Source: Candidatus Poribacteria bacterium
Lineage (GTDB): Bacteria > Poribacteria > WGA-4E > WGA-3G
Direction: 5' to 3'
Assembly (NCBI GenBank): GCA_964291315.2
Contig: OZ219753.1
Span: 3,168,001 to 3,232,000 of the forward strand
DNA length: 64,000 bases
Shown: positions 7,487 to 51,300 of the stretch, one piece after another
Layout: every line of letters begins with the position of its first letter
Position numbering within the stretch: the stretch's first letter is position 1
Notes under the pieces: model-generated
Seen by the model: the letters and a program-made list of their open reading frames with translations, nothing else
Told to the model about the DNA's origin: nothing
The model's database searches: none
Program-made: the position numbers and the translations under genes

Positions 7487-9471
7487 ATGCCCAAACACAA
7501 CTTCAATGAGAGACTGACAGCACTCCTCAAAACTGACACTGATTTTATCGACGACGCAGGCGAACTCATCCTCGCCGCTGTCAGAGAACACGCTTGGAGA
7601 CTCGACCACAACCTCATCAGATTACTCATCACCGACACAGAGATTAAGAAAACCTTCTTTCACGAGATCGAAGGACATTGGGTCTTCAATCACAATACCT
7701 TCGTTAACTATATCACCGATAAAAACTTCCTCGCCAATTCCTACACCCGTTTCCGAAATAAAATCGGCTTGAATATCGGCGGCAAATATCTCCGAGAACG
7801 CGGTGAAGTGTCGCTGGTTTGGCCTTACAAAGACTGCGTTCTGGAAGGCGGGCAGACGCGCGAAGAAGAGCAGCGTGCGGAGATATTTTTCAATGAGGTG
7901 CTTGCACAAGATGAGATAGATCGGCTGTTTGATCCGAAGGTTCTGACGAGTTGGCGGCGTTATACGTCTGATATTCTGGTTGACAAAAGCGGGGGGGGGT
8001 ATTTCATGATAAGTATACCGAAGGTGGCGTGGGAGAACTGAAGCGAGATGAGAACGGGGTTATTCGTGAGAACCTCATTATCAAAGGCAACAATCTCATC
8101 GCGCTCCACACGCTCAAGCAGCAATTCCGCGGACAGGTCAAGCTCATCTACATCGACCCGCCGTATAATACCGGAAATGACAGTTTCGGTTACAACGACA
8201 AATTTAACCATTCCAGCTGGCTAACCTTCATGAGAAATCGATTGGATATAGCAAGAGAATTGTTAAGAGAGGACGGTGTCGTTTTTGTACAATGCGATGA
8301 TAATGAGCAGGCCTATCTGAAAGTTTTAATGGACGAAGTTTTTGGCAGTAAAAATTTCGTCTCAAACTCCGTAGTGGTCATAAATAGGGGTGGTCGAGAT
8401 TATGGAGGGATAGCGCGAACGCACGAATACCTTTTGGTATATTCAAAAGAACCACAAACTGAGCTAAATCAGATAGAAGAAAAAGACAAAAAATTTGCTT
8501 ACGAAGATGATCGCGGCGGCTTTAACTTAATGGAATTGAGAAACCGTAATGTTCGATTTAATTCTGAGAATTGCCCAAGTTTATGTTATCCATTTTATGT
8601 CAACCCAGCCGACGTAGATATCAACGGTTTATTGGAGCTCTCATTAGAGAGAAAACCGGGGTTTGTCGAAGTGATGCCGTTAAAATCTCAGGGCGTGCAG
8701 ACCGTCTGGAGGTGGGGTCGGGAAAGAGCCCTTAAGTATCTAAACACTGAAATAAAAGGGAAATCGAGACGGAATGGCGGTTACATGATTGTTCAAAAAT
8801 ATAGGAGTACCTCTAAACGTCAAAGAAGCGTTTGGGACGAGAAAGCGTTTGTAAACCAAAGAGGAACTGCACACATAAAAGCCTTGTTTAACGGAAGCGT
8901 TTTTGATTATCCAAAATCAGAGCATCTAATCGCACGGATTATTGAGCTCGGCAGCAAAGTCGGGGACATTATTTTAGATTTCCAGCTCGGATCCGGGACA
9001 GCTGCCACTGCCGCCCATAAAATGAGGCGGCAGTATATAGGTATTGAGCAGATGGATTATATTACCGAGGTGACTCTGCCGCGACTCAGCAGTGTCATTG
9101 CCGGTGAACAAGGCGGCATCTCTGAATCAGTCAAGTGGCAAGGCGGCGGTGATTTCATCTATTGTGAGCTAACGCCATATAACCAAAGCTATATGGACAA
9201 AATCCAAGCCGCACAAACCTCTGAAGAACTGATCGCCCTCTGGCGAGAGATCGCTGAAAACTCATTTCTGAATTGGTATGTCAACGCCGAAGTGCCCCAA
9301 GAGGCGATAAACGACTTCAAGGCTATCAGGGACGTGCAGAAACAGAAGCATCTATTGGCAGAACTTCTGGATAAAAACCAGCTGTATGTCAATCTCTCGG
9401 AGATAGAAGACGCAGATTTTAGGATTAGCGAGGAAGATAAAACCTTAAACAAGGCGTTTTATGGCGAATAA
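7487..9471 (+). CDS. mod: Type III R-M Mod DNA methyltransferase, frameshifted at a G9 tract (7991-7999). G10 gives a 661-aa protein. No res gene adjacent.
   Basis: ORF 7487-8041 is the Mod N-terminus. ORF 8029-9471 has NLIIKGNNL, IYIDPPYN and DFQLGSGT. The downstream frame is open from the tract onward (V-F-H-D-K-Y-T-E-G-G-V). Confidence 0.85.
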
Positions 9472-9661
9472 AAAATTTCACGGCGGGCAAAAGACGATAG
9501 GAAGCACAGGGATCTATCCGTTGTGAGTATCACCGTAGCAGTATTGACAATATTTATGCCCCTGCTCGTTGTTCCTAAAATTTGATTTAAAAGTCAGTTT
9601 TTGATATAATACGGTTTTAAAGTAAACACTTCTAATTGCAACGCGAAAGGAGATTCCGGTC

Positions 9662-10540
9662 ATGCGAGAATTTGGGTATATTGACGCGAAAACTGTATCG
9701 GAAGCTGTTACCCTACTCGATAAGAAAGGGCAGACTGCGCGGATTTTAGCCGGCGGTACCGATCTTATCGTCCAAGTGAGAGAAGCACAGAGAGATGTTG
9801 ACTGGATGATCGATATCAAATCCATCCCTGAGGTCAACGTATTAGATTATAATGCGGATGCTGGTTTAACGCTCGGTGCTGCCGTGGAATGTTATAAGAT
9901 TTATGCTGTTGACGAGATCTGTGATGCCTATCCATGTTTAGTTGATGCTGCCAAAATTATTGGGGGCACTGCAATTCAAGGACGCGCGGGGGTTGGTGGT
10001 AATTTGTGTAACGCCTCACCTGCGGCAGATACCATACCGCCTCTAATTGTGTTAAATGCCATTTGTGTCATCGCCGGCCCAAACGGTGAACGCCAGCTGC
10101 CAGTTGAACAATTCTGTACCGGCCCTGGGCAGACTGCGTTAGAAACGGGGGAGATACTTGTATCCTTAAAGATACCGGCACCTGCCAGCAATTCAAGCTC
10201 CTACTATCTCCGGTTCATTCCACGCAACGAGATGGATATCGCTGTTGTCGGTGCAGGTGCTTCTGTGAGGCTTGACGATGCTAAACAGTCCATTGTCTCT
10301 GCTCGGATCGCGCTCGGTGCTGTTGCACCAACGCCGCTGTTTGCAGAAGAGGCGAGTGGGCTACTCGCGGGGCGTGAAGTCTCTAATACCGCGATTGACG
10401 AAGCCGCAGCGGCTGCGCAAGCGATCGCCCGCCCGATTAGCGATATGCGTGGAACGGCAGAGCAGCGGACACACCTTGTTGGTGTACTGACGCGGCGCGC
10501 CCTCAATGGTGCAATCCAGAGAATCCGTGACGCAGCATAA
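9662..10540 (+). CDS. Xanthine dehydrogenase / CoxM-family FAD-binding subunit
   Basis: AGGTDL, GGNLCNASPAAD and ISDMRGTAEQR. Confidence 0.9.
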   Translation: MREFGYIDAKTVSEAVTLLDKKGQTARILAGGTDLIVQVREAQRDVDWMIDIKSIPEVNVLDYNADAGLTLGAAVECYKIYAVDEICDAYPCLVDAAKIIGGTAIQGRAGVGGNLCNASPAADTIPPLIVLNAICVIAGPNGERQLPVEQFCTGPGQTALETGEILVSLKIPAPASNSSSYYLRFIPRNEMDIAVVGAGASVRLDDAKQSIVSARIALGAVAPTPLFAEEASGLLAGREVSNTAIDEAAAAAQAIARPISDMRGTAEQRTHLVGVLTRRALNGAIQRIRDAA

Positions 10541-10634
10541 ACATTCTTGTTTTACCTGCATCGGTTGATTAACGTTTCTCTATCGGAAGGACACACCCTT
10601 CCTTCTTCACTCAATGCAAAAGGAACTCATAACT

Positions 10635-11105
10635 ATGGCGAGAAAATCGCACGTTCAAACCGCTATTAATGGTGAAACGGTGGAATTTCTATGTGAGCCC
10701 CGGCAGAGTTTGCTGGAAATTCTCAGAGATGAACTCCACCTTACTGGTGCTAAAGAGGGATGCAACAACGGAAATTGTGGTGCCTGTTGTGTCATTCTCG
10801 ATGGCAGACTCGTCAATTCATGCTTGGTCTTGGGGGTCGAGACTGAAGGCAAATCCGTTGAAACGATCGAAGGACTTGCTGAACCCGAAAAATTGCACCC
10901 CATTCAGGAAGCTTTCCTCGAAAACGCAGCGCTTCAATGCGGTATCTGTACTCCGGGCTTTATCATGAGTGCGAAAGCACTTCTTGATAAAACCCCAAAC
11001 CCGACTGAACACGAAATTCGATACTGGTTGGCCGGAAATTTATGTCGCTGTACCGGTTACGATAAAATTGTTCGAGCTGTGCTCGACGCAGCCGCAGCTA
11101 TGTGA
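10635..11105 (+). CDS. Xanthine dehydrogenase / CoxS-family 2Fe-2S subunit
   Basis: [18 protein letters not shown] and [11 protein letters not shown] at 10635 follows an AAGGA RBS. Confidence 0.92.
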
Positions 11106-11135
11106 AAGGAGCGTCTCTCGACGAAAAAATAGAAA

Positions 11136-13391
11136 ATGGCTGATAACAAAGAATACAAAGTTGTTGGAACCCGACCTATCCGCCATGACGGCGTTGACAA
11201 GGTCACCGGCCGGGCTCTTTACGGGGCAGATTTTCAGATCACAGGACTCCTTCACGGCAGGGTGCTTCGGAGTCCACATGCCCACGCCCGAATCCTCTCA
11301 ATTGACACGAGTCGTGCCGAAGCTCTTCCGGGAGTCAAAGGGGCAGTCACTGCACAAGACTTGCCTACCGCTGAGGACAGAGTCGCAGACCTCGGTGAGG
11401 GAGCTGTCAATCTCAAATATCTCTGCGATAACATTTTAGCGAACGACAAGGTGCTGTACAAAGGACACGCAGTTGCTGCAGTTGCTGCGACGGACCCGCA
11501 CATTGCAGAAGAGGCATGCAAACTGATTGATGTTGAATATGAGGTGCTGCCCCCTGTGCTAGAGGTGCGTCATGCTATGGAGTCGGATGCGCCTCTCCTG
11601 CACGAGAATCTGAAAACTACTTCACTGGGTGAAACTGCTGAGGAACCGAGCAACATTGCAAGTCACATCCAACATAAAAAGGGCGATACTGAGAAAGGGT
11701 TCGCGGAAGCAGATGTCGTCATTGAACGGGACTTCGTTACAGGCACTGTCCACCAAGGCTACATTGAACCGCACAATGCCACGGCACATTTCAACCAAGA
11801 CGGTCAGCTGACCATTTGGTGTAGCACACAAGGGGCGTTTACTGTTCGTGAGCAGGTTGCTGAGATCCTCCACTATCCGATTTCTAAAATTAAGGTTGTC
11901 CCGATGGAGATCGGGGGAGGCTTTGGTGGCAAAATCAGCGTCTACATTAAACCGGTGGCAGCACTGTTAGCAAAGAAAACAGGCAAGCCGGTCAAGGTCT
12001 TGATGAGCCGCACGGATGTGTTTGAAGGTACAGGACCGACCCCGGCCTCTTACATCCGCGTCAAGATGGGGGCTACTAAGGACGGTAAGCTAACTGCGGC
12101 TGAGGCGTATCTCGCTTTTGAAGCGGGAGCTTATCCCGGCTCCCCGGTTGGCCCCGGGGCCATGTGTATCTTTGCACCTTACAACATTGAAAACGTCCTC
12201 ATTGACGGTTACGATGTTGTTGTGAACAAACCGAAAACCGCTCCGTATCGCGCACCGGGGGCAACAAACGCAGCTTTCGGTTCAGAGACAGTGCTTGACG
12301 AGATCGCCGAAAAGCTGGGCATAGATCCTCTTGAAATCCGGTTAATCAACGGTGCGAAAGAGGGGGATCGTCGTGCAGACGGTCCGGTTTACCCACGCAT
12401 CGGCTTCATTGAGTCAGTTGAGGCCGCGAAACAGCATCCACACTATGGCTCACCGAACGGGAAAAAGCACCACGGGCGTGGCGTTGCTTCTGGCTTCTGG
12501 TTTAACATCGGCTTGGAGTCGAGCGTGACGATTAATGTTAACGCCGATGGCACAATTAATCTCATTGAGGGGTCAACAGACATCGGCGGCACGCGCGCTT
12601 CCATCGCCATGCAAGCGGCAGAGGTTCTTGGTATCCCCGCGGAATCGGTGAACCCGAGCGTCGTTGACACCAATTCTGTGGGTTATACTGCTGTAACAGG
12701 TGGCAGCCGCACAACGTTCGCAACGGGGTACGCAGCGTATGAAGCAGCACAAGATGTTAAGAGACAGATGATCGATCGCGCCGCGAAACTCTGGGAGGTG
12801 GACGCATCCAAGGTCCAGTTTGCAGAGGGCGTATTTTCATCCATTAACGGCAAAGAGGAACAGATAAGTTTCCGTGACCTCTGCGCGCGTCTCGGTGAAA
12901 CCGGGGGTCCAATTGTCGGCAGCGGAACCGTAAATCCTGGGGGCGCTGGCGGTGCCTTCGCAACCCACGTTGTAGATGTGGCAGTAGACGAAGAGACCGG
13001 CAAGGTTGAAATTTTGCGCTACACCGCAACACAGGATGCAGGAAAAGCCATTCATCCGAGTTACGTTGAGGGGCAAATCCAAGGCGGTGTTGTTCAAGGC
13101 ATTGGCTGGGCATTGAATGAAGAATATATCTACAACGCCGAGGGTACGATGACAAACGCCAGCTTCCTTGACTATCGGATGCCAACCTGTTTGGACTTAC
13201 CTATGATTGATGCTGTCATTGTTGAGGTGCCGAATCCCGGGCATCCGTATGGTGTGCGTGGTGTCGGCGAAGTGCCGATCGTGCCACCGCCTGCTGCTAT
13301 CGCCAACGCTATCTACGATGCAATCGGCATTCGAATGACAGAGCTCCCGATGTCGCCAGATCGGCTTCTGAAAGCCATGGGCAAAATCTAA
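11136..13391 (+). CDS. Xanthine dehydrogenase-family molybdopterin-binding large subunit (not a form I CO dehydrogenase)
   Basis: GGGFGGK, APYRAPG active-site loop (not AYxCSFR), EGQIQGG and GVRGVGE. Confidence 0.9.
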   Translation: MADNKEYKVVGTRPIRHDGVDKVTGRALYGADFQITGLLHGRVLRSPHAHARILSIDTSRAEALPGVKGAVTAQDLPTAEDRVADLGEGAVNLKYLCDNILANDKVLYKGHAVAAVAATDPHIAEEACKLIDVEYEVLPPVLEVRHAMESDAPLLHENLKTTSLGETAEEPSNIASHIQHKKGDTEKGFAEADVVIERDFVTGTVHQGYIEPHNATAHFNQDGQLTIWCSTQGAFTVREQVAEILHYPISKIKVVPMEIGGGFGGKISVYIKPVAALLAKKTGKPVKVLMSRTDVFEGTGPTPASYIRVKMGATKDGKLTAAEAYLAFEAGAYPGSPVGPGAMCIFAPYNIENVLIDGYDVVVNKPKTAPYRAPGATNAAFGSETVLDEIAEKLGIDPLEIRLINGAKEGDRRADGPVYPRIGFIESVEAAKQHPHYGSPNGKKHHGRGVASGFWFNIGLESSVTINVNADGTINLIEGSTDIGGTRASIAMQAAEVLGIPAESVNPSVVDTNSVGYTAVTGGSRTTFATGYAAYEAAQDVKRQMIDRAAKLWEVDASKVQFAEGVFSSINGKEEQISFRDLCARLGETGGPIVGSGTVNPGGAGGAFATHVVDVAVDEETGKVEILRYTATQDAGKAIHPSYVEGQIQGGVVQGIGWALNEEYIYNAEGTMTNASFLDYRMPTCLDLPMIDAVIVEVPNPGHPYGVRGVGEVPIVPPPAAIANAIYDAIGIRMTELPMSPDRLLKAMGKI

Positions 13392-13756
13392 TTTACTCTC
13401 AATGCTACCGGGGTGGGGCCCGCCGCCTACCCCTACAAGTCAACCGAGTTGATAAAAACAGACAAACATCCGAAGTATGCCAACCGTTGCCATTCCCGCT
13501 CTCATGCGTAATCTTACAGACGGTGAAGAGAGCGTCTTGGTCTCTGGGACTACTGTCCGTGAAGCGATTGATAGCTTAGAAAGTCGCTACCCGGGTATCA
13601 AAGTTCGCTTGTGTGAAGGGGACCGTCTTAAACCCGGTATTGCCGTCTATATCGACGGTCTTCTCACCCGAGGGTCTCTCCGCGAACCGGTTAATGCGGA
13701 TGCGGAGATCCATTTCCTTCCTGCCATCAGCGGCGGCGCTGCCGAATCAACCTGTT
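13334..13756 (+). repeat. Direct repeat R1, copy a (last 18 codons of the xdh large subunit, intergenic region, moaD)
   Basis: Near-identical to 15589-16015, with a few substitutions and a 4-bp indel mostly in the 5' half. Confidence 0.95.
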
Positions 13757-13758
13757 AA
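13477..13758 (+). CDS. moaD: MoaD/ThiS sulfur-carrier protein, copy 1
   Basis: Ubiquitin-like fold ending FLPAISGG plus an AAESTC extension. Confidence 0.85.
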   Translation: MPTVAIPALMRNLTDGEESVLVSGTTVREAIDSLESRYPGIKVRLCEGDRLKPGIAVYIDGLLTRGSLREPVNADAEIHFLPAISGGAAESTC

Positions 13759-13869
13759 GATTGGTTATATGTAATCAGGCAAAAGATGGCGAATAGTCAA
13801 AAAAGTATCCCCACTATAATTCCAATCCTGATGACGAGTTGATGGAGTCCTCTTGGCAGCAATTTGATC

Positions 13870-14323
13870 TTATCGGTGCCTCGCTGACCTTCTACGGATA
13901 ACGGATGATGTGAGTACGTGCGGGCACCGCGTTGGTGGTCGGCTTCCTGTTTCTATCCCCAGCTTCCGGCCCGTCCGAAACAACGCAACGGGACACGTCG
14001 AGATTACCGGGATAACGCAGTCTGAACTCAATAACGCGGGGTTCAATATCCTACGGAGTAAGAGCAAGGCCTGCAAGTTCCCAGCGATTAACACAAAAGG
14101 GCTAATTGCTGGCCACGGCACGACACCCGAGAAGCATGTCTATACCTACACAGATACCACTGCGAAACCCATGGTCTATTACTACCAGATAGAAGCCATT
14201 TCTATGGACGGGGTGCGCACGATGTTACGGACGACGCATCTGCGTGGAAATGTCTCTGTGAGTGGTAACCTCACAACGTGTTGGGGTGAGCTGAAATCGC
14301 CAAATAGCAGACATAGCAGTTAG
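13870..14323 (+). pseudogene. Decayed C-terminal fragment of a large secreted protein (LPV-type Ig domain and a 'LTT.WGELK' C-terminal motif)
   Basis: LPVSIPSF, SELNNAGFNILRS, GHGTT, YTYTD, YYYQIE and LTTCWGELK. No signal peptide or clear start. Confidence 0.6.
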
Positions 14324-14547
14324 ACAACAAACTAACCTTACAAATCAATTAACCGAACGTAGAGGGCGGAACTCATGTTTCACTCCCCAACGTTTTTTAA
14401 CCACAGTCGCTGCCTGTTTTCTTTTCGGTGATCGAAAAAAAGCTAAACTTTTTGGACCGAAACGTATATATATAAATAATAAGGCGAAACATCACCGGAC
14501 GTGAAAGTATCCGGGAGTTTTGCACTACAAGAGGAAGGAGAAAACAA

Positions 14548-14865
14548 ATGAAAACGTCTTTGTTTCAAATGCTTGTGATTCTTAGCTTCCTTACCGTAGG
14601 TTTCATGACCGTTACGTCGTTTTTTCAAGAGAGTGGGGCAGATCCAAGCGAGGTTATACATGAGAGACACGAATATTGGAGGCGGTGTATAAACCTACCA
14701 AGTTCACCACAACTCCTGTTTATTCAGAATAAGGTCTATGCGAATGGGTGGCATGAAGGGGATCACTGGAGCAGCGGTGGAAACGACTCTGTGCCGCGCC
14801 ATCTTGTATCCATAATACGCAGAACGGTTTACCATCTCCGTTGGGTACGGTGTGAGGTCGCCTAA
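14548..14865 (+). CDS. Small secreted His/Cys/Trp-rich orphan protein (105 aa)
   Basis: Strong RBS (AAGGAGA), signal peptide ending ESGA, mature part with 2 Cys and several His. Confidence 0.7.
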   Translation: MKTSLFQMLVILSFLTVGFMTVTSFFQESGADPSEVIHERHEYWRRCINLPSSPQLLFIQNKVYANGWHEGDHWSSGGNDSVPRHLVSIIRRTVYHLRWVRCEVA

Positions 14866-14882
14866 ACCTTACCTTTTCTTTT

Positions 14883-14919
14883 TATAGGTAGGACTTGCCA
14901 GAGACAAGTTCTACCTATA
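14883..14919 (+). terminator. Intergenic hairpin between the peptide gene and its partner gene
   Basis: TATAGGTAGGACTTG...CAAGTTCTACCTATA inverted repeat. Confidence 0.6.
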
Positions 14920-14951
14920 TCTAATCTTTAAAATAGGAGGTATTCTTAGAA

Positions 14952-15593
14952 ATGAAACGAGTTTTTTTCACTGCCGGCGCTCTAATTTTTTTAGGCATCG
15001 CTTGGACGTTATTTCTCCGGTGGGATAGGATCCGTTTTGTGGAAAGCCTACCCAAAGCGCCCGTTCGCACTGATATCCAACACGCCACAGAACAGACTCC
15101 TCAAGATCTCATTGCTGAAGACAAAAGCAGCGATGCGCTTAGAGTCCAGAGAACACAAGATGAGTCTGCCCATATAGATGAGGAAACGCCTATAGACACA
15201 ACGGACAGGCCCTTGCATCACAATGAGACTCATTCGTACCGCCCCGAACTCACTTTTCGCCATGAGTCTGAACAAGGCATTGAAACTCTCAAACCAGAGA
15301 ATAAATCCCCAATTTTTGCTCCGGATCTCTCCGCAGAGGAACTCATAGAGATGGACCGTCAGAGCTTCGTAGAAAAATACGGTAATATTCCTGAGATAGA
15401 CATATTTTTCAAATATATGTCTCCTGTTTATGAAGCGTGGGCAGCTGGGGAAAGTCAGTTTACCGTTGACAGAACCAACGAAAAAATACTTGAGTTGAGC
15501 CGCGCACAGATGGTTTTGTATCCGGATAAGCCTTATTTTAGAAAGGAATACGAACGCGCGCTAAAAATATTGAAGGAGCAAGAACAACAATGA
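14952..15593 (+). CDS. N-terminally membrane-anchored orphan protein (213 aa), 'G(D/N)IPE' family
   Basis: AGGAGG RBS, single N-terminal TM, low-complexity linker, C-terminal EKYGNIPEI...AQMVLYP similar to the 239-aa proteins. Confidence 0.75.
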   Translation: MKRVFFTAGALIFLGIAWTLFLRWDRIRFVESLPKAPVRTDIQHATEQTPQDLIAEDKSSDALRVQRTQDESAHIDEETPIDTTDRPLHHNETHSYRPELTFRHESEQGIETLKPENKSPIFAPDLSAEELIEMDRQSFVEKYGNIPEIDIFFKYMSPVYEAWAAGESQFTVDRTNEKILELSRAQMVLYPDKPYFRKEYERALKILKEQEQQ

Positions 15594-16015
15594 CAGAGCT
15601 CCCGATGTCGCCAGATCGGCTTCTGAAAGCCATGGGCAAAATCTAATTTACTCTCAATGCCACCGGGGTGGGGCCCGCCGCCTACCCCTACAAGTCAACC
15701 GAGTTGAAAAAAACAGACAAACATCCATCCACAGTATGCCAACCATTGCCATTCCCGCTCTCATACGTAATCTTACAAACGGTGAAGAGAGCGTCTTGGT
15801 CTCTGGGACTACTGTCCGTGAAGCGATTGATAGCTTAGAAAGTCGCTACCCGGGTATCAAAGTTCGCTTGTGTGAAGGGGACCGTCTTAAACCCGGTATT
15901 GCCGTCTATATCGACGGTCTTCTCACCCGAGGGTCTCTCCGCGAACCGGTTAATGCGGATGCGGAGATCCATTTCCTTCCTGCCATCAGCGGCGGCGCTG
16001 CCGAATCAACGTGTT
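15589..16015 (+). repeat. Direct repeat R1, copy b
   Basis: Starts at AATGACAGAGCTC and supplies the TGA stop of the 213-aa gene. Matches 13334-13756. Confidence 0.95.
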
Positions 16016-16023
16016 GGAATTAG
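15736..16023 (+). CDS. moaD: MoaD/ThiS sulfur-carrier protein, copy 2
   Basis: Differs from copy 1 by V4I, M10I and D15N, and ends ...GGAAESTCWN. Confidence 0.85.
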   Translation: MPTIAIPALIRNLTNGEESVLVSGTTVREAIDSLESRYPGIKVRLCEGDRLKPGIAVYIDGLLTRGSLREPVNADAEIHFLPAISGGAAESTCWN

Positions 16024-16191
16024 TTTTAGGTATCGATGCAAAAAGCGCGCGTATGATCGGCGATTCTGCTTAAAAATGCAGGTAAAACCCCTAAAATTTC
16101 CTGATCACAGCTTTTCTTCGTAAAAAAAACGAATAAATTTGAAAAAAAATGGTTTTAAGGGCAGAATTATGCATTTTTTTGACAAATTAAT

Positions 16192-16220
16192 TTGACAAAC
16201 GCTTTTTGAAGGTGTATAAT
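16192..16220 (+). promoter_or_regulatory. rRNA promoter; boxA-like GTTCTTTGAAA at about 16253
   Basis: Perfect TTGACA-17 bp-TATAAT with an AT-rich upstream region. Confidence 0.85.
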
Positions 16221-16338
16221 TAACATTACCTTTCAATAGGAAAGGTGGTTTTGTTCTTTGAAAGTTAAATAGTGAACGTGACGTGCCTATTAAATAGCTT
16301 GTGAGTGCACTTCCATTGAGAAGATGTACTTCAATACT

Positions 16339-17997
<1,659 letters not shown>

Positions 17998-18073
17998 AAC
18001 AAATGTTCTAACACATCCTACCTTGCTACAACTTATCTTGCAAAGAACCTCCAATTAGAGGAGATCAATCAAC

Positions 18074-19055: not shown

Positions 19056-19842
<787 letters not shown>

Positions 19843-20261: not shown

Positions 20262-20270
20262 CATTTGACT

Positions 20271-39991: not shown

Positions 39992-40084
39992 ATCTCGCGA
40001 TAACGCGAGGTGCCGCGAGATATCATCTCGATCCCTCGCGAGCCTCCTTCTTTTCACAGCAAATTATCTAATACAACATTACAA

Positions 40085-42470: not shown

Positions 42471-42666
42471 AGAACGAATTTGCACAACTGATTGTCAATT
42501 CGAGCTTCACAACAGCAAGTGCTATCCGTTCGGACTTATAAAGCTGCGAACTACTATAGGTCCTGTCCTTTCGATTTGCATAAAGACGCATTTTCCGTTG
42601 CCTAGCGGGCGCGAGCAGAAGCACATTGGCGAGGTTAAGACGCCTCGCCCAGCAAAAATGAATCTT

Positions 42667-45600
42667 TTAGACCTGTTCGACGGTTATGGTCGCGGGTTCG
42701 CCGTTGAGTTTCTGAGAAACTGTGAAGGCGTTCTCGCCCGAAGACTCGACAACGGTTGTTGTCAATGTCTCTTGCAGAATATAATCTCGATGCACCTCAA
42801 ATGCTTCTTCAACAAGCAATGAAGGCGTTTCGAGACTGAGCTTAATCCGGTCTGAGACATTAAAGTCGGCTTCTTTCCGCATATTCTGGATTTTGTTGAC
42901 AAGTTCGCGTGCCAAACCTTCAAGCGTCAGCTCATGTGTCAATTCGGTTGACAATGCCCCGAATTTCTTCGCGTCTACCTCCACAAAGAAACCCTCTCTA
43001 TTTTGTGTTTGCACGTCGATTTCTGATTGTTCGAGTGTGTAGGTCTCGCCTGAGGCTTCGAGCTGTAGACTGCCGGTCGCTTCTAGTTCCGCCTTCAGTT
43101 GCATTGAATTTGCAGTGGCGAGTGCCTTTGCGATGGCTTGTACACCTTTGCCATACTTCGGTCCCAAGGATCTGAAGTTCGGCTTGAGCGTCACTTGTGC
43201 GAATGCATCTAGATTCTCTACAAAGGTAATCGTCTTGACGTTGAGTTCATCGTGGACAAGTTCTGATAGACGGTTAACCGTCTTTTTTTCCAGGTCAGAG
43301 AGTCCTCCGAGTGTGAACTCGGCGAGCGGTTGGCGTGTTTTAATGCCCGATCGGTTGCGTGCAGCATGTCCCATACGGATGATCTCGCGCGTGAAAGCCA
43401 TATCGGTGTCGAGCTGGGTGTCTTTTAGTGTGGCATCTGCAACTGGGTATTCTGCAAGATGAACGCTAGGTGGGGCGTTGGGGTCCAGCGAACACGCCAA
43501 GTTTCTGTAGAGTTCGTCCGAGAGAAACGGAGTAAAGGGGGCTGCGAGTTTTGCAAGGGTTACCAGCACCTCATAAAGCGTTGCATAGGCAGCCTGTTTG
43601 TCTGGTCCGGCTTTAGTCCCCCAGAATCGGTCTCGACAGCGTCGGACGTACCAGTTGCTGAGGTCATCGACAAACGTCTCAATAGCGCGCGGCGCGTTCG
43701 TGAGGTGGTAATTTTCCATGCTATTGCGTGCAGCGTCGATGAGGGTATGGAGTCGTGATAAAATCCATCTGTCCATTGTCGCCCGTTTTTTGACCGGTGG
43801 GGCATCTTGTAGCACGTCGATCTGCTCTAAGTTGGCATACATAACGAAGAAGCTGTAGACGTTGTAAAAAGTGCCCATGAACTTCTTCAGGGCTTCATCA
43901 ACTCCCTCGGTTTTGAAAGTGCGCGGTGTCCACGGTGTGGTTGCGGTGAACATGTACCAGCGCATTGCGTCCGCGCCTTGTTTGTTGAGAACCGTCCATG
44001 GGTCCACTGTGTTACCTCGGCTCTTACTCATTTTTTGGCCGTCGGGTCCCATAATGAGTTCAAGGCAGAGGCAGTTTCTGTAAGCCGGTTTATCATAGAG
44101 AAGGGTGCCGGTTGCCAAGAGGCTATAGAACCAACCGCGCGTCTGATCGATGGCTTCCGAGATGAAATCGGCGGGGAACGCTTGTTCGAACATCTCTCTG
44201 TTTTCAAACGGGTAGTGCCATTGTGCAGTGTGTGCACAGCCCGAGTCAAACCAGCAGTCAATTACGTCTTCCACGCGATGCATTATGCTGCTGCACTTAC
44301 TGCAGGTGAGGACCACGGCATCCACATACGGGCGGTGCAGTTCGATATCGGCCGGAACGTCTGTGCCTCGTTCCTTCAATTCGGCGATACTTCCCACACA
44401 GTGCTGATGTCCGCAGTCGTCACAAACCCAGATCGGCAGCGGTGTCCCCCAGTATCGTTCACGACTCAGGCCCCAGTCGATGTTATTTTCTAACCAGTTG
44501 CCGAACCTTCCATTTTTGATGTGTTCCGGATACCAATTGATCTCCTGATTGTGTTGACGCATCTGATCGCGAATGGCGGTTGTTCGGACAAACCACGATT
44601 CACGGGCGTAATAGAGCAGCGGGTTATCACATCGCCAGCAGAAGGGATATTGGTGCTTATGTTCGGCAGCCTTGAACAAGAGACCGCGCCCTTTTAAATT
44701 GGCTATGATGTGTGGATCGGCAGCCTTGACGTATTCCCCCGCCCATTTTTCTTTCACCTCTGGAACAAATCTGCCATCCGCCCCGACTAATTGCACAAGG
44801 GGCAGGTTATATTTTTGCCCGATCTCATAGTCGTCTTGTCCAAAGGCGGGGGCGATGTGGACCAAGCCGCTACCCTCTGTCGTTGTCACGAAATCTGCTG
44901 TGACGATGTAGTGCGATTTTTCTGGGTGCTGTCCGCTATCAAACAGCGGCTCGTACTCCCAATCGCGGAGGGCACTGCCTTTATAGCTCTCAACGATTTG
45001 TGGAGATTCATCACCGAATAGACTCTGCATACACGCTTTTGCAAGTATAAGATGCTGCCCGTTGTGTTCAACAGAGACATACTCGTAATCTTCACCGACA
45101 GCAACGGCGACGTTAGACGGCAGCGTCCACGGGGTCGTCGTCCACACGAGCAAATAGGTGTTTTCCTGATTTTTCAACGGGAAACGCACAAAGATTGACG
45201 GATCTGAGACTTCTTGGTACGCCAAAGCGACTTCGTGACTAGCTAAGGTTGTACCGCACCGGTAGCAGTAGGGTTGCACTTTGTGCCCCTGATACAGCAG
45301 ATCCTTATCCCATGCCTGCCGAAGTACCCACCAGACGCTTTCTATGTAGTCGTTTGACAAGGTAATATAGGCATCGTCAAGGTTGACCCAGAACCCGATG
45401 CGTTCTGTCATTTGTCGCCAGTCTTGCTCGTATTGGAACACGTTCTCTTTACATTTTTCGATAAAGTTCTGAACACCGTAAGCCTCAAGTTCGGCTTTGT
45501 TTGTAATATTCAGCTGCTTTTCAACCTGATATTCAACGGGGAGTCCGTGTGTGTCCCAACCTGCCTTCCGGTGGACGTAGTGTCCTGTCATCGTTTTGTA

Positions 45601-45810
45601 GCGGCAAATAGCGTCCTTCATGACGCGAGCGAGGACGTGATGCACACCGGGCGGTGCGTTTGCAAACGGCGGTCCCTCTAAGAAAACAAATGGCGGCGCG
45701 TCTTTTCGCAGCTCCATGCTCTTCTGAAAGATGTTATTTTCACGCCAGAAGGCTAAGGTATGTTTTTCTTTCTCAGAAAACGTAAATTGTGGTGATACCT
45801 CTTCAAACAT
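42667..45810 (-). CDS. ileS: Isoleucyl-tRNA synthetase type 2 with a GVHH signature
   Basis: EGPPFANAPPGVHH, GWDTHGLP, WTTTPWTLP, DQTRGWF, KMSKS and the IleRS2-type C-terminus (EGLARELVNKIQNMRK). Confidence 0.95.
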   Translation of the reverse strand: MFEEVSPQFTFSEKEKHTLAFWRENNIFQKSMELRKDAPPFVFLEGPPFANAPPGVHHVLARVMKDAICRYKTMTGHYVHRKAGWDTHGLPVEYQVEKQLNITNKAELEAYGVQNFIEKCKENVFQYEQDWRQMTERIGFWVNLDDAYITLSNDYIESVWWVLRQAWDKDLLYQGHKVQPYCYRCGTTLASHEVALAYQEVSDPSIFVRFPLKNQENTYLLVWTTTPWTLPSNVAVAVGEDYEYVSVEHNGQHLILAKACMQSLFGDESPQIVESYKGSALRDWEYEPLFDSGQHPEKSHYIVTADFVTTTEGSGLVHIAPAFGQDDYEIGQKYNLPLVQLVGADGRFVPEVKEKWAGEYVKAADPHIIANLKGRGLLFKAAEHKHQYPFCWRCDNPLLYYARESWFVRTTAIRDQMRQHNQEINWYPEHIKNGRFGNWLENNIDWGLSRERYWGTPLPIWVCDDCGHQHCVGSIAELKERGTDVPADIELHRPYVDAVVLTCSKCSSIMHRVEDVIDCWFDSGCAHTAQWHYPFENREMFEQAFPADFISEAIDQTRGWFYSLLATGTLLYDKPAYRNCLCLELIMGPDGQKMSKSRGNTVDPWTVLNKQGADAMRWYMFTATTPWTPRTFKTEGVDEALKKFMGTFYNVYSFFVMYANLEQIDVLQDAPPVKKRATMDRWILSRLHTLIDAARNSMENYHLTNAPRAIETFVDDLSNWYVRRCRDRFWGTKAGPDKQAAYATLYEVLVTLAKLAAPFTPFLSDELYRNLACSLDPNAPPSVHLAEYPVADATLKDTQLDTDMAFTREIIRMGHAARNRSGIKTRQPLAEFTLGGLSDLEKKTVNRLSELVHDELNVKTITFVENLDAFAQVTLKPNFRSLGPKYGKGVQAIAKALATANSMQLKAELEATGSLQLEASGETYTLEQSEIDVQTQNREGFFVEVDAKKFGALSTELTHELTLEGLARELVNKIQNMRKEADFNVSDRIKLSLETPSLLVEEAFEVHRDYILQETLTTTVVESSGENAFTVSQKLNGEPATITVEQV

Positions 45811-45940
45811 TTGGAAATTCCTCCGGCTCTTGTGGAAGTTGGAAGCGGCTGTCTGCTTGCCATCCGCACCGTCTTCCATCTACATCTGGAAGCGTGGGAA
45901 AGTAGTATGAAGTTCCTTCCAGATTTTCTTAGATCGTAAC

Positions 45941-45983
45941 AAAAAAACGCCCTCACCGAAATCGTCCGTTTCAGCGATGGGCA
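45941..45983 (-). terminator. Intrinsic terminator (attenuator) in the ileS leader
   Basis: Minus strand GCCCATCGCTGAAA...TTTCGGTGAGGGC followed by T7. Confidence 0.8.
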
Positions 45984-46013
45984 TCCGAATAAAGACTGCG
46001 TATCTACCTATGA

Positions 46014-46181
46014 TTAGCCCACCACGGCATGATCAATAGCAATAACAGTGGGTAGGGCGCGCAGAACCGCGGCAACCCGAGGGTTCCCTGGATGTGGAAC
46101 GTTGTTGCGCATCAGTTTCTTATATTGCAGCAGCATCAATGTGGGAAGCGATTTTCTGTCCATGCCTGGTTTGAATGACAT
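46014..46181 (-). CDS. Putative ileS leader peptide (up to 55 aa; Val-Ile-Ala-Ile near the end)
   Basis: Open frame ending ...LPTVIAIDHAVVG*, overlapping alternative hairpins upstream of the terminator. Confidence 0.55.
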   Translation of the reverse strand: MSFKPGMDRKSLPTLMLLQYKKLMRNNVPHPGNPRVAAVLRALPTVIAIDHAVVG

Positions 46182-46240
46182 TTAGTACTGTGAACGTCGA
46201 CTTTTCTCGAATTTATCTGCTAAAGATATACTAGTTAATT

Positions 46241-46269
46241 ATAATACTACATTCTCTGTGGGATGTCAA
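46241..46269 (-). promoter_or_regulatory. Promoter for the ileS leader
   Basis: Minus strand TTGACA-17 bp-TATTAT. Confidence 0.65.
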
Positions 46270-46590
46270 CTATTTTTCCGCTGTAGAAGGCTATTCAAAT
46301 GCCTCCCAAAAAATAGAAGTGTTTATAGAAAATGCCGGGGGCTATTTTTCCTTGGATCCGCTAGCAATCTCACTGGTATCTAATGATTTTGGGTTGAAAA
46401 TTATAGATTTATCAGGTATACTAGATAAAAGTAGCATCTAACTTATTTTTCCCTGAATTATAGCAATCCGTTGACATTTTGCGAACCACAAATCTATAAG
46501 TGTGTTTCTCGAAAAACAGCGTATGTACATCACCTCTTACTGCTGATAGCGTAATAAATAATACAAGGATGACTCATTCGGAGAACTAGC

Positions 46591-47715
46591 ATGGCTAAAC
46601 AGATTGCACTTTTCAACCATAAAGGCGGTGTCGGCAAGACAACAACAACCTTCAATCTAGGTTGGATGTTAGCAAATAAAGACAAAAGGGTTATTATTGT
46701 GGATTGTGACCCACAGTGTAACCTTACCGGCATGGTGCTTGGGTTTAAAGATGCTGAGGGATTCGCCTCAATGTATGAGTCGGCTGGCGTAACGAACATT
46801 CGCAAAGGTCTCGCTCCTGCTTTTGAATCGCGGCCTGCACTTATGAAACCTGTGAAGTGTACCTCTATCAGGGGACAACCGGATATGTACCTACTCCCTG
46901 GGCACATCGGTCTTGCCGAGTATGAAATTACCTTAGGGATTGCCCAAGAGCTGTCTGGATCCTTGGTAACACTTCAGAACTTGCCAGGCTCCTTGCACTA
47001 TCTTTTTCGCAAGACTGCTGAAAAATACAACGCCGATTTCATCTTAGTAGACATGAGTCCAAGTTTGGGACCAATTAACCAAAACTTACTGATGACGAGT
47101 GACTATTTCATTGTGCCGATGTTTCCTGATTACTTTTCAACCATGGCGATAAGAAGCCTCGCCTCAATTTTACCGAAATGGTCAGCATGGGCAAAGCAGG
47201 GCAAAAAGTCAACCATCTTGCAACAAGCGATTTACCCTTTTCCCGACAAGCACCCTAAGTTTCTAGGACCCATAATCCAGAATTTTCGAATTAGGGGAGG
47301 CATTCCGGCTACCGCTTTCAAAAAATGGATTGAGGAAATAAAAACGGGCATTAAGGAAAAGCTCATCCCTGTCTTACGTGAAAACAACATGCTACTTCCA
47401 GATGAATGGTATATAGAAGGGAGGTCAATTGAATCATATCAGACCCAATTTAATTTTCTTAATCCGAATTTCACACACGACTCGATCATAAGCCAACCAC
47501 TTTTCCAAGTGTCAGACTTCAATAGTCTCATTGCTCTCTCACAAAAACATAAAGCCCCGGTTTTTGACTTGAGGGACGATCAGATTGGTCAAGCAGGTAT
47601 AATACTTGCGAATACCAAAGCTTCGATGAAAAGGTTTTATGACTTATTTGATGATGGAGCTGACCGGATAATCACCCTCACTGAGAAGGTCGAATCCGAT
47701 TGTCTATGCAACTGA
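46591..47715 (+). CDS. ParA/Soj-family ATPase (long, non-partition type)
   Basis: Deviant Walker A NHKGGVGKTT, VDCDPQCNLT and VDMSP. Confidence 0.88.
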   Translation: MAKQIALFNHKGGVGKTTTTFNLGWMLANKDKRVIIVDCDPQCNLTGMVLGFKDAEGFASMYESAGVTNIRKGLAPAFESRPALMKPVKCTSIRGQPDMYLLPGHIGLAEYEITLGIAQELSGSLVTLQNLPGSLHYLFRKTAEKYNADFILVDMSPSLGPINQNLLMTSDYFIVPMFPDYFSTMAIRSLASILPKWSAWAKQGKKSTILQQAIYPFPDKHPKFLGPIIQNFRIRGGIPATAFKKWIEEIKTGIKEKLIPVLRENNMLLPDEWYIEGRSIESYQTQFNFLNPNFTHDSIISQPLFQVSDFNSLIALSQKHKAPVFDLRDDQIGQAGIILANTKASMKRFYDLFDDGADRIITLTEKVESDCLCN

Positions 47716-48365
47716 CGATCTACATACCACTTGAGATAATATCCTCGAGCGTGTTGAATCCTATTGAGCAATTTCGTGGAAATATAGACCGCGTCCGAGC
47801 ACACGGTAGATTGCACGCTGCGTTCGACCAGCAGACTACTGATGTTGTAGATCTGACTGATCTTTTACGCGCCCAGATCGTTATGCTTATCAGTGCGCTT
47901 GACCACTACATCCACGAAATCACACGGATTGGAATGTTAGAAGTCTATGCCGGGATACGTCCAAAGACGAAGCCTTTTTCACGTTTTCAAGTGTCTCTGG
48001 ACGCGACGATAATGGGAATTTCCAAACCCAATGAGAAAGAGTGGCTTGATATAGCAATCCGAGAAAAGCATGGTCATAAAGCTTTCCAGCAACCAGATAA
48101 GATCGCCGATGCGGTCCGGCTCTTTTCATCCTGCAAGTTATGGAGAACCGTTGCATCAGAACTTAACCTAACCGAGCAGGACGTGAAAAACCGACTCCGT
48201 ACGATAGTTAACCGGCGAAATCAAATTGTCCATGGGGTTGACTTGGATCCGAGTTATCCAGGAACTAGAAACCGTTGGCAGATTTCTCCTTCGGATGTGA
48301 CAGATGCCCTGGAATTCATTCAGGAAGTTTGTGAAACGATTGATGTTGTTGTTAATCAAAATTAG
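47700..48365 (+). CDS. HEPN domain protein (putative RNase); start uncertain
   Basis: Helical protein with the Rx4H motif RNQIVH. It overlaps the end of the ParA gene. Confidence 0.75.
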   Translation: MSMQLTIYIPLEIISSSVLNPIEQFRGNIDRVRAHGRLHAAFDQQTTDVVDLTDLLRAQIVMLISALDHYIHEITRIGMLEVYAGIRPKTKPFSRFQVSLDATIMGISKPNEKEWLDIAIREKHGHKAFQQPDKIADAVRLFSSCKLWRTVASELNLTEQDVKNRLRTIVNRRNQIVHGVDLDPSYPGTRNRWQISPSDVTDALEFIQEVCETIDVVVNQN

Positions 48366-48368
48366 ATC

Positions 48369-51300
48369 TCACCGCGCCATCCCCGCCTCACGATACGTCT
48401 GCTCAATCAACGCGATCTCCGCATCTGTCAAACCATACACCCGATACACCCACGCGTCTATCTCCCGCTCTATGTCGCGCACGCCCTCGCTCTCTGGATC
48501 TGCCAATATCTGCTCGACGAGCCGTGACAGCTCCGCTTTCTGTGCATCAGTCCGATCTGCTATCGGGGTACGGCGCATATACTGTGGCTTGAAACGTAAA
48601 CCACCCGTCCAAGGATCATTAAGGCTCTGGAATTTATGGCGTGCATACCAATCAAGCAGTGTGCTGTTTAAGATAGCAAGCAAGGAGAGATCATAGGTCG
48701 GTATAAAGTGGGTTGTGTCTAACCCGAATGATTTCATTGTGTCATAGCATGCGTGAATCGATTTTGAAATCTCTGGGTACAAAATCTTCGGTTTTTCGAA
48801 CTTGTCATAATAAGCGGTATTCGCTTGTATTTCATACCACTGATAGCGTCCTGCTGCCCTATTTTCAAGTGCCTCTCTATATTGGCTCAGATGTTTCTTG
48901 ACAGCTGGGTATCGGTCAATCTCAACCCCTTGCCGTGTGAAGATGAGATATTGCCCTGTGCTATCCGTCCGCCACTTTCTAAGGTCTCGCCCTCTGAGCA
49001 AAGGCTTTATGAGCTCATCGCTCTTCGGATCCTCGGAGATCAGCCGCTGCCGCACAGCCGCATCGATGATAAATGCCTTGTTATATCCTGTTACGACCCC
49101 GCGCCAAAGTCCATCCACATATTCTCCGAGGGGTGTGCCAGTTGTTTCGAGTTTCCGCAGGAGCCGCACTGTCTCGGGCGATGCCAAGGTCCAGCCCTCC
49201 GCTGATAAATCACGCGGATGCAGCCGAAACGCCCGCTCCCGAAACGCCGCAGACAGCCGCAGCACATCGGACGCCTCCCGAAACGTCGCCACCGAAACAG
49301 GCACTCTGTCTGATGTAGCATTTTCAAGGATCAGGATACAGGTATCCACACTCGCTTTGAAGACAGCGACACTCCCGAAGTCAAGCAGCCGCTGAATGCG
49401 TTGGGTATCGCTGAAAAAGGTACGCAGTTTTCTGCCATACGCTGCCCGCAAAAACTTGTTTGAGGAGATATACGCCAAGATGCCGTGCCTCCGCAGCAGC
49501 TCCGTGCCGCGCTTGTAAAAATAGACGTAGAGGTCTGCGGTGCCGACATACACCTCTGGGAATAGCCGTTTGTAAGTCGGCTTCATCGCTTTGATAAGTT
49601 CTTGTCGCACATAAGGTGGGTTGCCGATCACAACATCAAAACCACCGGCTTGAAAAACCTCCGGAAACTCAACCTGCCAGACAAACGCCTCCTCCGGGGC
49701 ATCTTGCCAGCCTTGAAGATCCGCTCGGAGTGTCGCGATCTGCTCTCGGAGTGCCTGTCTCTTTGCATCCCCGCGCGTGCCGAAATAGACGGCTTGCCGC
49801 TCCTGTATCTCTTGGATCAACGGCCTGTCAAGCGTCATCTGTTCGGGGGCTGCACCGGTCAAACTGTCTCCTGTTGCAACCTTATAGTCCAAGTTCGGCA
49901 GCGGTTCCGGTACGGCACCTTCATAGTCTACTGTGAGGCTCAGCCACAGGCGCAGCATCGCGATGTTGACAGCGAAGTCGTCTCTGTCCACGCCGTAAAG
50001 GTTCTTCCGGATAATCTCCAGCTTGCGTTCATACACCGTGCCAGAATCGGTCTGATCGCTTTGGAACAGAGCATCGCGCAGGCGGAGCAGTTCGCCCATC
50101 ATACCGAGTAGATACGCACCGCTCCCACACGCAGGATCACACACCCGTAAGTTCTGCAGCACCGCTAACACGCCCTCTGAATCGCGGATCCCCGTGGCAT
50201 CGCCTGCGTCAACAAACTGTGTCAGGCACGCCGCGCTCTCCGTTGTCTGCGTCTGCAAGCAGAGCTTCAGGCTCTCCCTGCACATGAAGGAGACAACCGC
50301 ACGCGGCGTGTAGTAGCTCCCACTGGCGTGCCGCCCCGTGACGAGTTCCTCAAACACCTTACCCAGCATCTCGGGATCCACTGCAACCTCTATGTCTAGC
50401 GGCGTGGATTCGGTGATCGTGAAGTTATAACGTTCGAAGAGGTTGAGGATGTCGGCAAAGGTGTCGTTCGGCAGATCCACTGCGTGTTGTTCATCATACG
50501 GCTGCATCTCGAAGAGTCCACCGTTGAGGAACGGCACATCGCCGCGCCGGGTGCGAGCGGCGGCATCTTCGGATCCGGACTCACCGGCGGGATTGCTGAG
50601 ACCGTGGAAGAAGACGTAATAGAGCCGGTCGTTGAGCAAGCTCTCTGTCCGAGGCTCCTTGTGCTTATCAGAGATTACCCCCCCCGCTTCTTATAGATTC
50701 CGCACTGCCAGAGAGAGTCTCGATGCCCATTGCAGCCTCATACAACGCACGCAAGTAGTCCCGGCGACCCGCATACCGCAACCAACCCTTTTTTTCAAGA
50801 AAACGCAGAAACATCAAACGATTCAACAGACGCTGCGTATACAACCGACGAGCCTCCACAGCGCTCTCCGGGATCCCTGACAGCGAGGCCTCCACCAACG
50901 CAAAGACGCTCTTATACTCACGGAAAAACTGATCCGTCACAGCCGCCACATCAAACGCACGCTGCCATTTAGCAACCCACGCTTGCGACGACGAAAAACC
51001 GCCACGCGGAAACGCCAGAGCCGGCAGGTTGTATTCACACAGCGTCCGAAGGTGCGTATCCCCACGATCCCACGAGAATATAGACAGCACCGCATCCTGC
51101 CAAGACGCACCCGCACCTGCGAAGTGGGCAAACGCAAACCGATGAAAATCAGCAGTCGTGCAGATGAATAGCAGATGATCCAGCTCCCACGCAGGCAACC
51201 GTGCATCTCGGGCGCGCCTTTCAACCAGACCCCGCAGAACCCGCCGCAACTCCGTGCGATACACCCGCTCGCTACTGAATTCAACAAAGAAGATGCCCCA

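Follow-up and report, generated by a model that had tools for sequence, protein, structure and literature searches.

What does it mean that two unrelated DNA methyltransferase genes, 43 kb apart, are interrupted at what reads as the same short sequence? The question arises from a 64,000-nucleotide stretch (hereafter, the window) of a Poribacteria genome in which a type III mod gene (site 1) and a type IIG-like gene (site 2) are each broken at a poly-G tract lying between AAGC and TGATAAG. A preliminary description of the window saw in these flanks a portable frameshift module of restriction-modification (R-M) genes. We followed the tracts and their flanks through the whole 4.40-Mb, four-contig genome (48% G+C; G000, with the window at C4:3168001-3232000), through the orthologs of their host genes in the genus, and beyond. 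The best explanation of the two sites is that they belong to a genus-specific family of poly-G contingency switches. We think it probable that these are slipped-strand switches whose flanks were spread by short-patch recombination and kept by selection.

Both window genes break at the same motif

Coordinates, strands, and reading frames agree on re-reading with the preliminary description: both methyltransferase genes break exactly at AAGC-Gn-N7-TGATAAG. The element also stands in the same frame in both, as had been claimed, with AGC in frame and only G7 or G10 joining the halves of either gene, giving SGGGVFHDKYTE and SGGGVISDKHKE. The further claim, that TGATAA gives tandem stops in one off frame, describes site 2, where translation at G8 meets TGA TAA; site 1 at G9 uses the other off frame and reaches a stop 14 codons on.

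The window mod has the makeup of a type III Mod subunit, with a PF12564 N-terminal region, a PF01555 beta-class N6_N4 core, and a central target recognition domain (TRD), and the Mods in PDB entries 6k0w and 4zcf align with it from the core onward. No res gene adjoins it; its neighbors encode a SPOR-domain protein and xanthine-dehydrogenase-type proteins, so that no complete type III R-M system is seen at the window locus. The other gene is of type IIG, a gamma-class methyltransferase fused to a C-terminal specificity domain, and its 292-aa N-terminal part has no match in Pfam, NCBIfam, or PADLOC.

The window holds no run of G7 or longer besides these two, and its count of G7 words (5 versus 4.2 expected) is in itself ordinary. 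Taken alone, the pair is also weak evidence that the flanks are related: the 30+30 nt flank alignment scores z = 0.4 to 0.5 against shuffles, with 12/20 identical positions downstream and 5/8 upstream. The case for nonrandom flanks comes from the genome-wide set.

Twenty-eight methyltransferase genes carry a tract

Runs of G or C in this genome number 510, 47, 45, 18, and 2 at lengths 6, 7, 8, 9, and 10, with a shoulder at lengths 8 and 9 that A/T runs lack. Among the 65 runs of at least 8, 28 lie inside methyltransferase genes of four families (A, B/B', C, and D; Table 1), and another 32 are mostly upstream of genes, on the C strand. By profile match, families A and D are type IIG and families B and C are type III methylases; A and D also match PglX weakly, far under the NCBIfam cutoffs, and their best PADLOC match is type IIG.

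Every one of the 28 genes is out of frame, each G8 copy being shifted by 1 and each G9 copy by 2. Both halves are full length in 26; the other two have a second defect, a short downstream half at C4:2332208 and a short upstream half at C1:360080. The 19 copies of families A, B, and C are exactly G8, and families D and B' each include G8 and G9 copies. These are two of the properties of simple-sequence-repeat contingency loci: the repeat lies inside 28 open reading frames (ORFs) as G8 or G9 and upstream of further genes as G7 to G10, and within the ORFs tract length alone sets the full-length frame wherever there is no other defect. Paralogs within a family are 90 to 97% identical in DNA except in one hypervariable block (37 to 55% or less), which coincides with the TRD. 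At a threshold of <90% identity, families A, B, C, and D hold 6, 7, 6, and 7 distinct TRD blocks, that is, 26 among 28 genes. Three type III mod paralogs with different recognition blocks are clustered at C1:317900-326100, with tracts at 318425, 320499, and 324553.

Flanks are shared among nonhomologous genes

Over the 20 nt downstream of the tract, families A and B are identical at 17 positions; A-D, A-F1, and B-E comparisons give 15, and B-C gives 14. The null distribution from 557 G6-7 tracts has a mean of 5.1, with P(≥14) = 7.7e-4. Flank alignments tell the same story (z = 6.2 for A-B, ∼5.5 for A-E, and ∼4.8 for B-C), and for eight ordinary G8/G9 control tracts z is mostly within about ±2.5, with a maximum of 3.1. 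Families A and B additionally share ATAAG(A)AGC upstream of the tract.

The preliminary description had proposed scanning Poribacteria for the motif and tabulating its hosts. The tract-bearing hosts in this genome include the 28 methyltransferase genes in four families. A tract of G8 or longer followed after 7 nt by TGATAAG stands at 21 loci; copies also lie between and upstream of genes. Each of eight other genomes of the genus has one or two such loci, so that the pattern is present in 9/65 genomes of the genus versus none of the 111 genomes examined from 30 further genera of the phylum. The control, with the pattern reversed, has no match at the fixed 7-nt spacing and a single match in a genus search allowing 5 to 9 nt. 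The spacing is always 7 nt, though stop logic would equally permit 1, 4, or 10. We rejected TGATAAG as a general genomic motif, as the word is not enriched genome-wide (589 found versus 611 expected).

In family C the flank lies on the strand opposite to the gene, and the E-type and F-type copies and those in G080, another genome of the genus, are intergenic. Neither protein-level convergence nor stop codons can explain these copies. The claim that nonhomologous genes have flanks in common is thus borne out, and at differing positions: in mod, in A, in D, in C, in a further N6_N4 methylase, and in intergenic copies. That additional host family occurs in two other species, with orthologous tracts at ∼aa 611 that are G8 and in frame in G007 and G9 and off in G056; its flanks, GACAAAAAAGC..TGATAAGTATA, closely resemble those of the window mod.

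The exact cassette has no match in genomes of other species and none in viral contigs. One match in a JGI metagenome was set aside as chance; it reads G6-CA, lies outside long ORFs, and has no similarity to this genome. A looser pattern searched globally gave 18 loci, only 3 of them from Poribacteria (metagenome-assembled genomes [MAGs] labeled "Candidatus Poribacteria"). Matches in Niastella/Longitalea (5) and Thiomicrorhabdus (2) are in-frame orthologous genes and were likewise taken as chance. Elsewhere, TTGAC-G9/10-TATAAAATGATAAGAT is found on four contigs of one uncultured Bacilli MAG (L066, L070, L076, and L079) and in two Kiritimatiellia MAGs (L077 and L078); it resembles a promoter whose spacer is poly-G and whose −10 element is extended, and it is unrelated to the Poribacteria cassette. 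A gene of a Gastranaerophilales MAG (L067, position ∼6057) is broken at G8-TAAATCATGATAAG, its 145 aa before the break and 153 aa after it standing in different frames; this may be another phase-variable gene, similar in its flank but unrelated. Contig C46 of G046 has a run of ∼23 G's.

Most orthologs lack the tract segment

Using the gene parts adjoining each tract as queries, we searched the 65 genomes of the genus for orthologs. Had the segment been ordinary conserved sequence, as the preliminary description allowed, homologs would carry it; it is absent from most same-genus orthologs of A, mod, C, and D. In family A, 16/19 orthologous loci are tract-free and read ..DYLRSLFDATEAQTDENFLNDRLYW.., and the window copy has ∼24 extra residues; at the same spot, three other species have differing inserts composed of a G tract and TGATAAG (G022; G063, with G11; and G020, in frame). 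The mod segment is missing from 18/23 loci, which read ..WKRHT-VDGEQDVTDIQ-RDENG.., and the five loci that have it are ∼14 to 15 aa longer, with tracts of G9, G9 (in frame), G10, GGGGGAGGG (in frame), and G6 (in frame). Family D orthologs lack it at 20/23 loci; two others have interrupted in-frame tracts, and one has an unrelated insert. Family D in this genome has gained 7 residues, and what follows TAATC is ancestral coding sequence. In family C, 17/21 loci are without the segment, and the cassette allele is no longer than the rest; it is a ∼21-nt patch with at least five base changes plus extra C's, not an insertion, and its tract is C8, C9, C10, C11, or C15 (in frame) depending on the species.

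Gains therefore differ by host: in mod, 18 nt are replaced by ∼60 nt, A gains ∼75 nt, D gains ∼21 nt, and C gains almost nothing. The SGGGVxxDK segment had been suspected to be an insertion. Extra residues in A, mod, and D agree with this; the base-change patch of C and the ancestral part of the D flank do not. A tree was built from the mod parts on either side of the cassette (792 columns, 24 loci); on it, the cassette alleles need four changes, at least two of them forced by strongly supported branches, and placing all cassette-bearing alleles in one clade is rejected (approximately unbiased [AU] test, P = 1.5e-58). An AlphaFold model of the mod of G057, whose cassette allele is naturally in frame, was built from an 18-row alignment; its mean pLDDT of 46 is poor, and the model is uninformative on whether the segment forms a loop.

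The near-identical flanks in nonhomologous hosts point to DNA-level copying, not to independent origin alone. We base this reading of the sequence comparisons on the nonhomologous hosts and positions, the absence of the segment from most orthologs, and the mod alleles that do not form one clade. The ancestral sequences of C and D, already partly flank-like, would fit microhomology-anchored transfer or gene conversion seeded by the tract.

Tract lengths vary in the genus. Cassette alleles of relatives include G6, G9, G10, G11, C9, C10, C11, and C15, plus the interrupted GGGGGAGGG, GGAGGGG, and GGGGAGGGGGGGG, and pure tracts of at least 8 outside this genome divide into 3 in frame and 8 out of frame. 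Length also differs between samples at one promoter-type tract, C4:3159100, which is C8 in the assembly and in Logan contigs of runs X1 and X3 and C9 in those of run X2. Phase variation of these genes is likely on comparative grounds, namely, the G6-to-G15 range between species, the interrupted in-frame alleles that appear locked, and the mixture of in-frame and out-of-frame pure tracts.

Stops in the off frames of the flank

GAT AAG is preceded by a codon with T in third position in all the ON-frame readings observed (A, B, B', G014, G021, G057, G077, G063, and E2), whether that codon stands for H, P, C, or S. The GAT and AAG codons are unvarying, and the 7-nt spacer and the following codons vary freely. 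An invariant wobble T together with GAT AAG would be expected if TGA TAA were selected as an off-frame stop pair, and the invariance of TGATAAG fits selection for off-frame tandem stops. In TAAT-type flanks, the TAA right after the tract closes the other off frame.

Other functions of the flank were considered. TGATAAG as the extended −10 element of an internal promoter was rejected for the intragenic copies: sigma-70-like promoter prediction found no site at either window site, and the −10 candidates in A and mod are without the final T, which counts against an internal promoter. Readings as an IHF site, a DnaA box, or a hairpin were judged by eye and dropped as unconvincing. Reinitiation past the off-frame stops, giving a methylase-only product, is no more than an idea; the AAGGAG/TTG of the window type IIG gene is not conserved in three of the eight paralogs.

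Tracts upstream of genes

A fifth methylase family has its G8/G9 tract outside the coding region. Three copies of a 929-aa HmaB/DUF1156 DNA adenine methylase are preceded, at 194 to 220 nt, by a tract with the cassette-like flank AAAGC-Gn-TAATCTGG. Poly-C tracts of 7 to 10 lie ∼65 to 220 nt upstream of genes for secreted proteins with an FGE-sulfatase domain, for a TonB_C protein, and for a Laminin_G_3 protein, within a conserved element, ..TTAGCGATTA-Cn-GCTCCACACACAGTAAGTGTTTTATCCCCTTTATCACAAAA.., and look like promoter-level contingency loci.

Table 1. Features of the two window sites, the tract-bearing methyltransferase families, and the upstream tracts (window positions unless a contig is given)
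Feature	Position	Strand	Remarks
Site 1, 5' flank AAGC	7987-7990	+	AGC is an in-frame Ser codon
Site 1, G9 tract	7991-7999	+	Out of frame; G7 or G10 is in frame
Site 1, 3' flank TATTTCA + TGATAAG	8000-8006 + 8007-8013	+	ON frame ..F H D K; TGA TAA in one off frame
Type III mod, N-terminal part to tract	7487..7990	+	Upstream frame continues to stop at 8041; PF12564 TypeIII_RM_meth, E 3.5e-21
Type III mod, methyltransferase core + TRD + C-terminal part	7999..9471	+	Downstream frame; PF01555, E 4.5e-42; PADLOC MTase_III, E 9e-147
Site 2, 5' flank AAGC	50689-50686	-	AGC in frame
Site 2, G8 tract	50685-50678	-	Out of frame; G7 or G10 is in frame
Site 2, 3' flank TAATCTC + TGATAAG	50677-50671 + 50670-50664	-	TAA in one off frame, TGA TAA in the other; ON frame V I S D K
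Type IIG-like gene (family A), N-terminal 292-aa part	51546..50668	-	Ends at TGA TAA just past tract
Type IIG-like gene (family A), methyltransferase + TaqI_C-like specificity part	50678..48369	-	Eco57I, E 4.6e-42; MmeI_Mtase; TaqI_C, E 5.4e-12; PADLOC REase_MTase_IIG, E 1.5e-112
Family A, type IIG, 290 + ∼780 aa	Tract at ∼aa 290		8 copies, including the window's
Family B/B', type III mod, ∼178 + 490 aa	Tract at ∼aa 175		5 + 2 copies, including the window's
Family C, long type III-like N6_N4 methylase, ∼580 + 405 aa	Tract at ∼aa 577		6 copies; reverse orientation
Family D, second type IIG, ∼712 + 375 aa	Tract at ∼aa 712		7 copies
HmaB/DUF1156 methylase upstream tracts	C1:9495, C4:2402822, C4:3144572		
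Secreted-protein upstream poly-C tracts	C4:330232, 775135, 2769968, 2223563, 2430290, 88854		∼25 more

Adjoining the type IIG gene in the window (46591-48365, + strand) is an AAA_31 (ParA-like) ATPase gene that overlaps a HEPN RiboL-PSP gene; the two may form a small defense pair.

Proposed origin of the switches and the case against

The sequence of events that we favor is as follows. Replication slippage would alter the length of the G tract, and only lengths of 3n+1 (G7, G10, and G13) would join the two halves of each methyltransferase gene. With a TAAT-type flank, a G9 tract would meet TAA at once and a G8 tract would meet TGA TAA three codons on, so that off-frame translation would end fast. 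A patch of ∼25 to 45 nt would be copied at the DNA level between loci and alleles, by gene conversion or microhomology-anchored recombination, and selection would retain the off-frame stops in the copied patches. The population could then draw on a very large set of methylation and restriction states.

Several observations weigh against this account. The assembly has 28/28 copies OFF, and the copies of A, B, and C are uniformly G8; free drift predicts about one-third ON, and (2/3)^28 is ∼1e-5 if the copies are independent. Of the earlier proposal that the mod genes are phase variable, the frame logic and the length differences between species are in favor and the assembly states are not. The genes for MutS and MutL are present, so that switching may be slow. 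Four runs of one study, as Logan contigs, were aligned over 19.5 kb covering site 1; an apparent G8 variant at the site proved to be the paralog at C4:1696268, with the same four single-nucleotide polymorphisms, and the contigs, which carry no usable information on read-level lengths there, show no heterogeneity at the site. Three species with the family C allele TAATTTGTG[A/T]TAAG have no other locus of G8 or longer with TGATAAG at +7 in the same genome; a within-genome donor is therefore not evident there. G080 has by far the most long G tracts of the genus (266 G9 windows, with tracts to ∼G15), and these have heterogeneous flanks. Flank sharing is thus not general to the genus, and we rejected within-genome flank homogenization as a general rule. 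The copying mechanism, switching within the population, and benefit are what we infer, the mechanism from patterns in the sequence.

How else could the flanks have come to be shared? A dedicated portable element, that is, a discrete frameshift module that its own machinery, whether transposition, retro-homing, or a site-specific enzyme, places in permissive R-M loops and promoters, would account for the same ∼25- to 35-nt core in at least five nonhomologous host positions, in both orientations and in intergenic DNA, for the constant 7-nt spacing to TGATAAG, and for the confinement of the pattern to one genus. The tract in B is bracketed by GATAAG-like words, as it is less perfectly in A, and these could be read as a target duplication. 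Such an element is nevertheless doubtful. The putative duplication is absent in C and D, the boundaries vary with the host, and the alignments, inspected by eye with no dedicated repeat search made, show neither terminal inverted repeats in the flanks nor the defined ends and target-site duplication of a transposable element or a miniature inverted-repeat transposable element (MITE). No associated enzyme was found, and none was searched for; the failure to find the exact cassette in viral contigs and other species, with one chance match in the JGI metagenomes, also tells against an element. What survives of the portable module first proposed is the copying of DNA between unrelated genes; there is no sign of an autonomous or discrete element, and the C patch is not an insertion. 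The boldest version, to which we give a small chance of being right, has a self-propagating switch cassette of ∼25 to 45 nt, carrying stops for either off frame, that a templated or enzymatic mechanism puts into permissive R-M loops and promoters. It would make at least 31 methyltransferases with ∼26 or more specificities independently switchable, and the uniform OFF state would come from resetting or copy-correction. The opposite view is that the tracts arose independently in place and converged under selection, a switch needing Ser/Gly-rich loop codons and the off-frame stops TAA and TGA TAA. The invariant wobble T and GAT AAG are as expected under it, the ancestral sequence in C and D is already like part of the flank, and unrelated bacteria have a G tract, 10 nt, and TAAGAT as promoters, so that parts of the motif recur for other reasons. 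We consider this unlikely as the whole explanation: stop logic fixes neither the 7-nt spacing nor TAATCT, it has no bearing on the C copy, which is reversed, or on copies between genes, and the close A-B match extends to both sides of the tract. The preliminary description had likewise argued against independent tracts, and the shared flanks and the absence from most orthologs uphold it in part; selection explains some of the flank, and some of it is ancestral in D.

The uniform OFF state invites explanations of another kind. If the tracts were stable, the genes could still be expressed at a low level, the G run provoking transcriptional slippage or a ribosomal frameshift. Consecutive GGG codons let tRNAs slip, the genome has mismatch repair genes, the 19 A, B, and C copies do not vary in length, and contigs of three samples gave no flag for any site 1 length other than that of the assembly. 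Such recoding is quite unlikely, as D and B' hold G8 and G9 copies that need opposite shifts, orthologs include both pure and interrupted in-frame tracts, and the slip site has no stimulatory stop or rare codon. Homopolymer error in a four-contig assembly that is probably long-read, as we infer, would also leave 28/28 genes out of frame, 26 of them by the tract alone. Five ordinary genes of the same genome, however, have in-frame G8 runs, which the assembly therefore handles correctly there; families A, B, and C would need a uniform 2-base undercall; the G8 of the paralog and the C8 of C4:3159100 recur in Logan contigs of X1, possibly the source sample itself; and orthologous tracts elsewhere in the genus are in frame in some genomes and out of frame in others. 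Assembly error is thus an unlikely cause of the OFF state, and the proposition that all the true tracts are in frame and the genes intact seems to us very unlikely indeed. Plain decay, with dead methyltransferase genes broken at a mutational hot spot, would likewise leave all copies out of frame and would suit the second defect in two genes. It is scarcely credible when 26/28 genes have no other stop over ∼660 to 1,090 codons and TRD diversity is maintained within conserved scaffolds.

Relation to known switching systems

Contingency switching with copied flanks, our preferred explanation, has precedents in part. Phasevarions, in which type III mod genes carry simple-sequence repeats, are known from Haemophilus, Neisseria, Helicobacter (modH), and Moraxella (modM). 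As in phasevarions, the repeat lies in the 5' part of a type III mod, upstream of the core, the frame sets ON or OFF, and many TRD alleles occupy a conserved scaffold; as in some of them, the window mod is solitary, with no adjoining res. Unlike phasevarion hosts, this organism is a sponge symbiont and not a host-adapted pathogen, and its sequence suggests seven mod paralogs plus 21 further switchable methylases. Here, moreover, the flanks are common to nonhomologous genes and all copies are OFF in the consensus, in a system known from genome sequence alone.

The Campylobacter jejuni poly-G phasome comprises tens of G8-G11 tracts per genome, intragenic and intergenic, including one in the type IIG gene cj0031. 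This genome resembles it in having many intragenic and intergenic G tracts, with a type IIG enzyme among the targets. Campylobacter is not known to have MutS/MutL mismatch repair, whereas this genome has both genes, and the targets here are mostly methyltransferases. As far as our literature searching shows, no conserved flank cassette is known to have been described for the Campylobacter phasome. In Streptomyces coelicolor, a G tract in pglX reportedly gives phase variation of Pgl, a system of the bacteriophage exclusion (BREX) type, as Sumby and Smith are said to have described in 2003. Both cases have a G tract inside an Eco57I/PglX-like methyltransferase. Pgl involves a single switching gene in a multigene system; here the best PADLOC match is type IIG, and no BREX neighbors are seen in the window.

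Inverting type I hsdS loci such as SpnD39III shuffle TRDs at one locus by means of a recombinase. They too yield a population-level repertoire of specificities from one genome, but the genome studied here instead has numerous full paralogs, every one of them bearing a frameshift switch. MITEs, of which the Neisseria Correia elements are an example, are bounded by terminal inverted repeats, come with target duplications, and are found chiefly in intergenic DNA. Like MITEs, the flanked tract is a short sequence found in many unrelated contexts and carrying a regulatory property; unlike them, it has a core of ∼25 to 45 nt with no inverted ends seen and ragged boundaries, and it is often in frame inside genes.

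Implications

Methyltransferases switched by repeats have been described chiefly in host-adapted pathogens, where a genome usually has one or a few such genes. Our literature search, at the level of titles and listings, found nothing on phase variation in Poribacteria or on a poly-G cassette with conserved flanks. The present case differs in the environmental symbiont host, the 28 intragenic and 3 promoter-type methylase tracts in one genome, the paralogs built of a scaffold plus a TRD, and the flank shared across nonhomologous genes and orientations. For annotators, "pseudogenes" of this kind are probably conditional genes. Copied flanks, if our account is true, would be a natural case of a regulatory "part" copied between genes, and they would make it testable whether switch flanks, with their off-frame stops and fixed spacing, are functional design features. 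If a self-propagating cassette were at work instead, this abundant, uncultivated sponge symbiont would run a population-level lottery of methylomes and defenses. If the switches act as we propose, phase-variable epigenetic or defense heterogeneity would extend to environmental symbionts.

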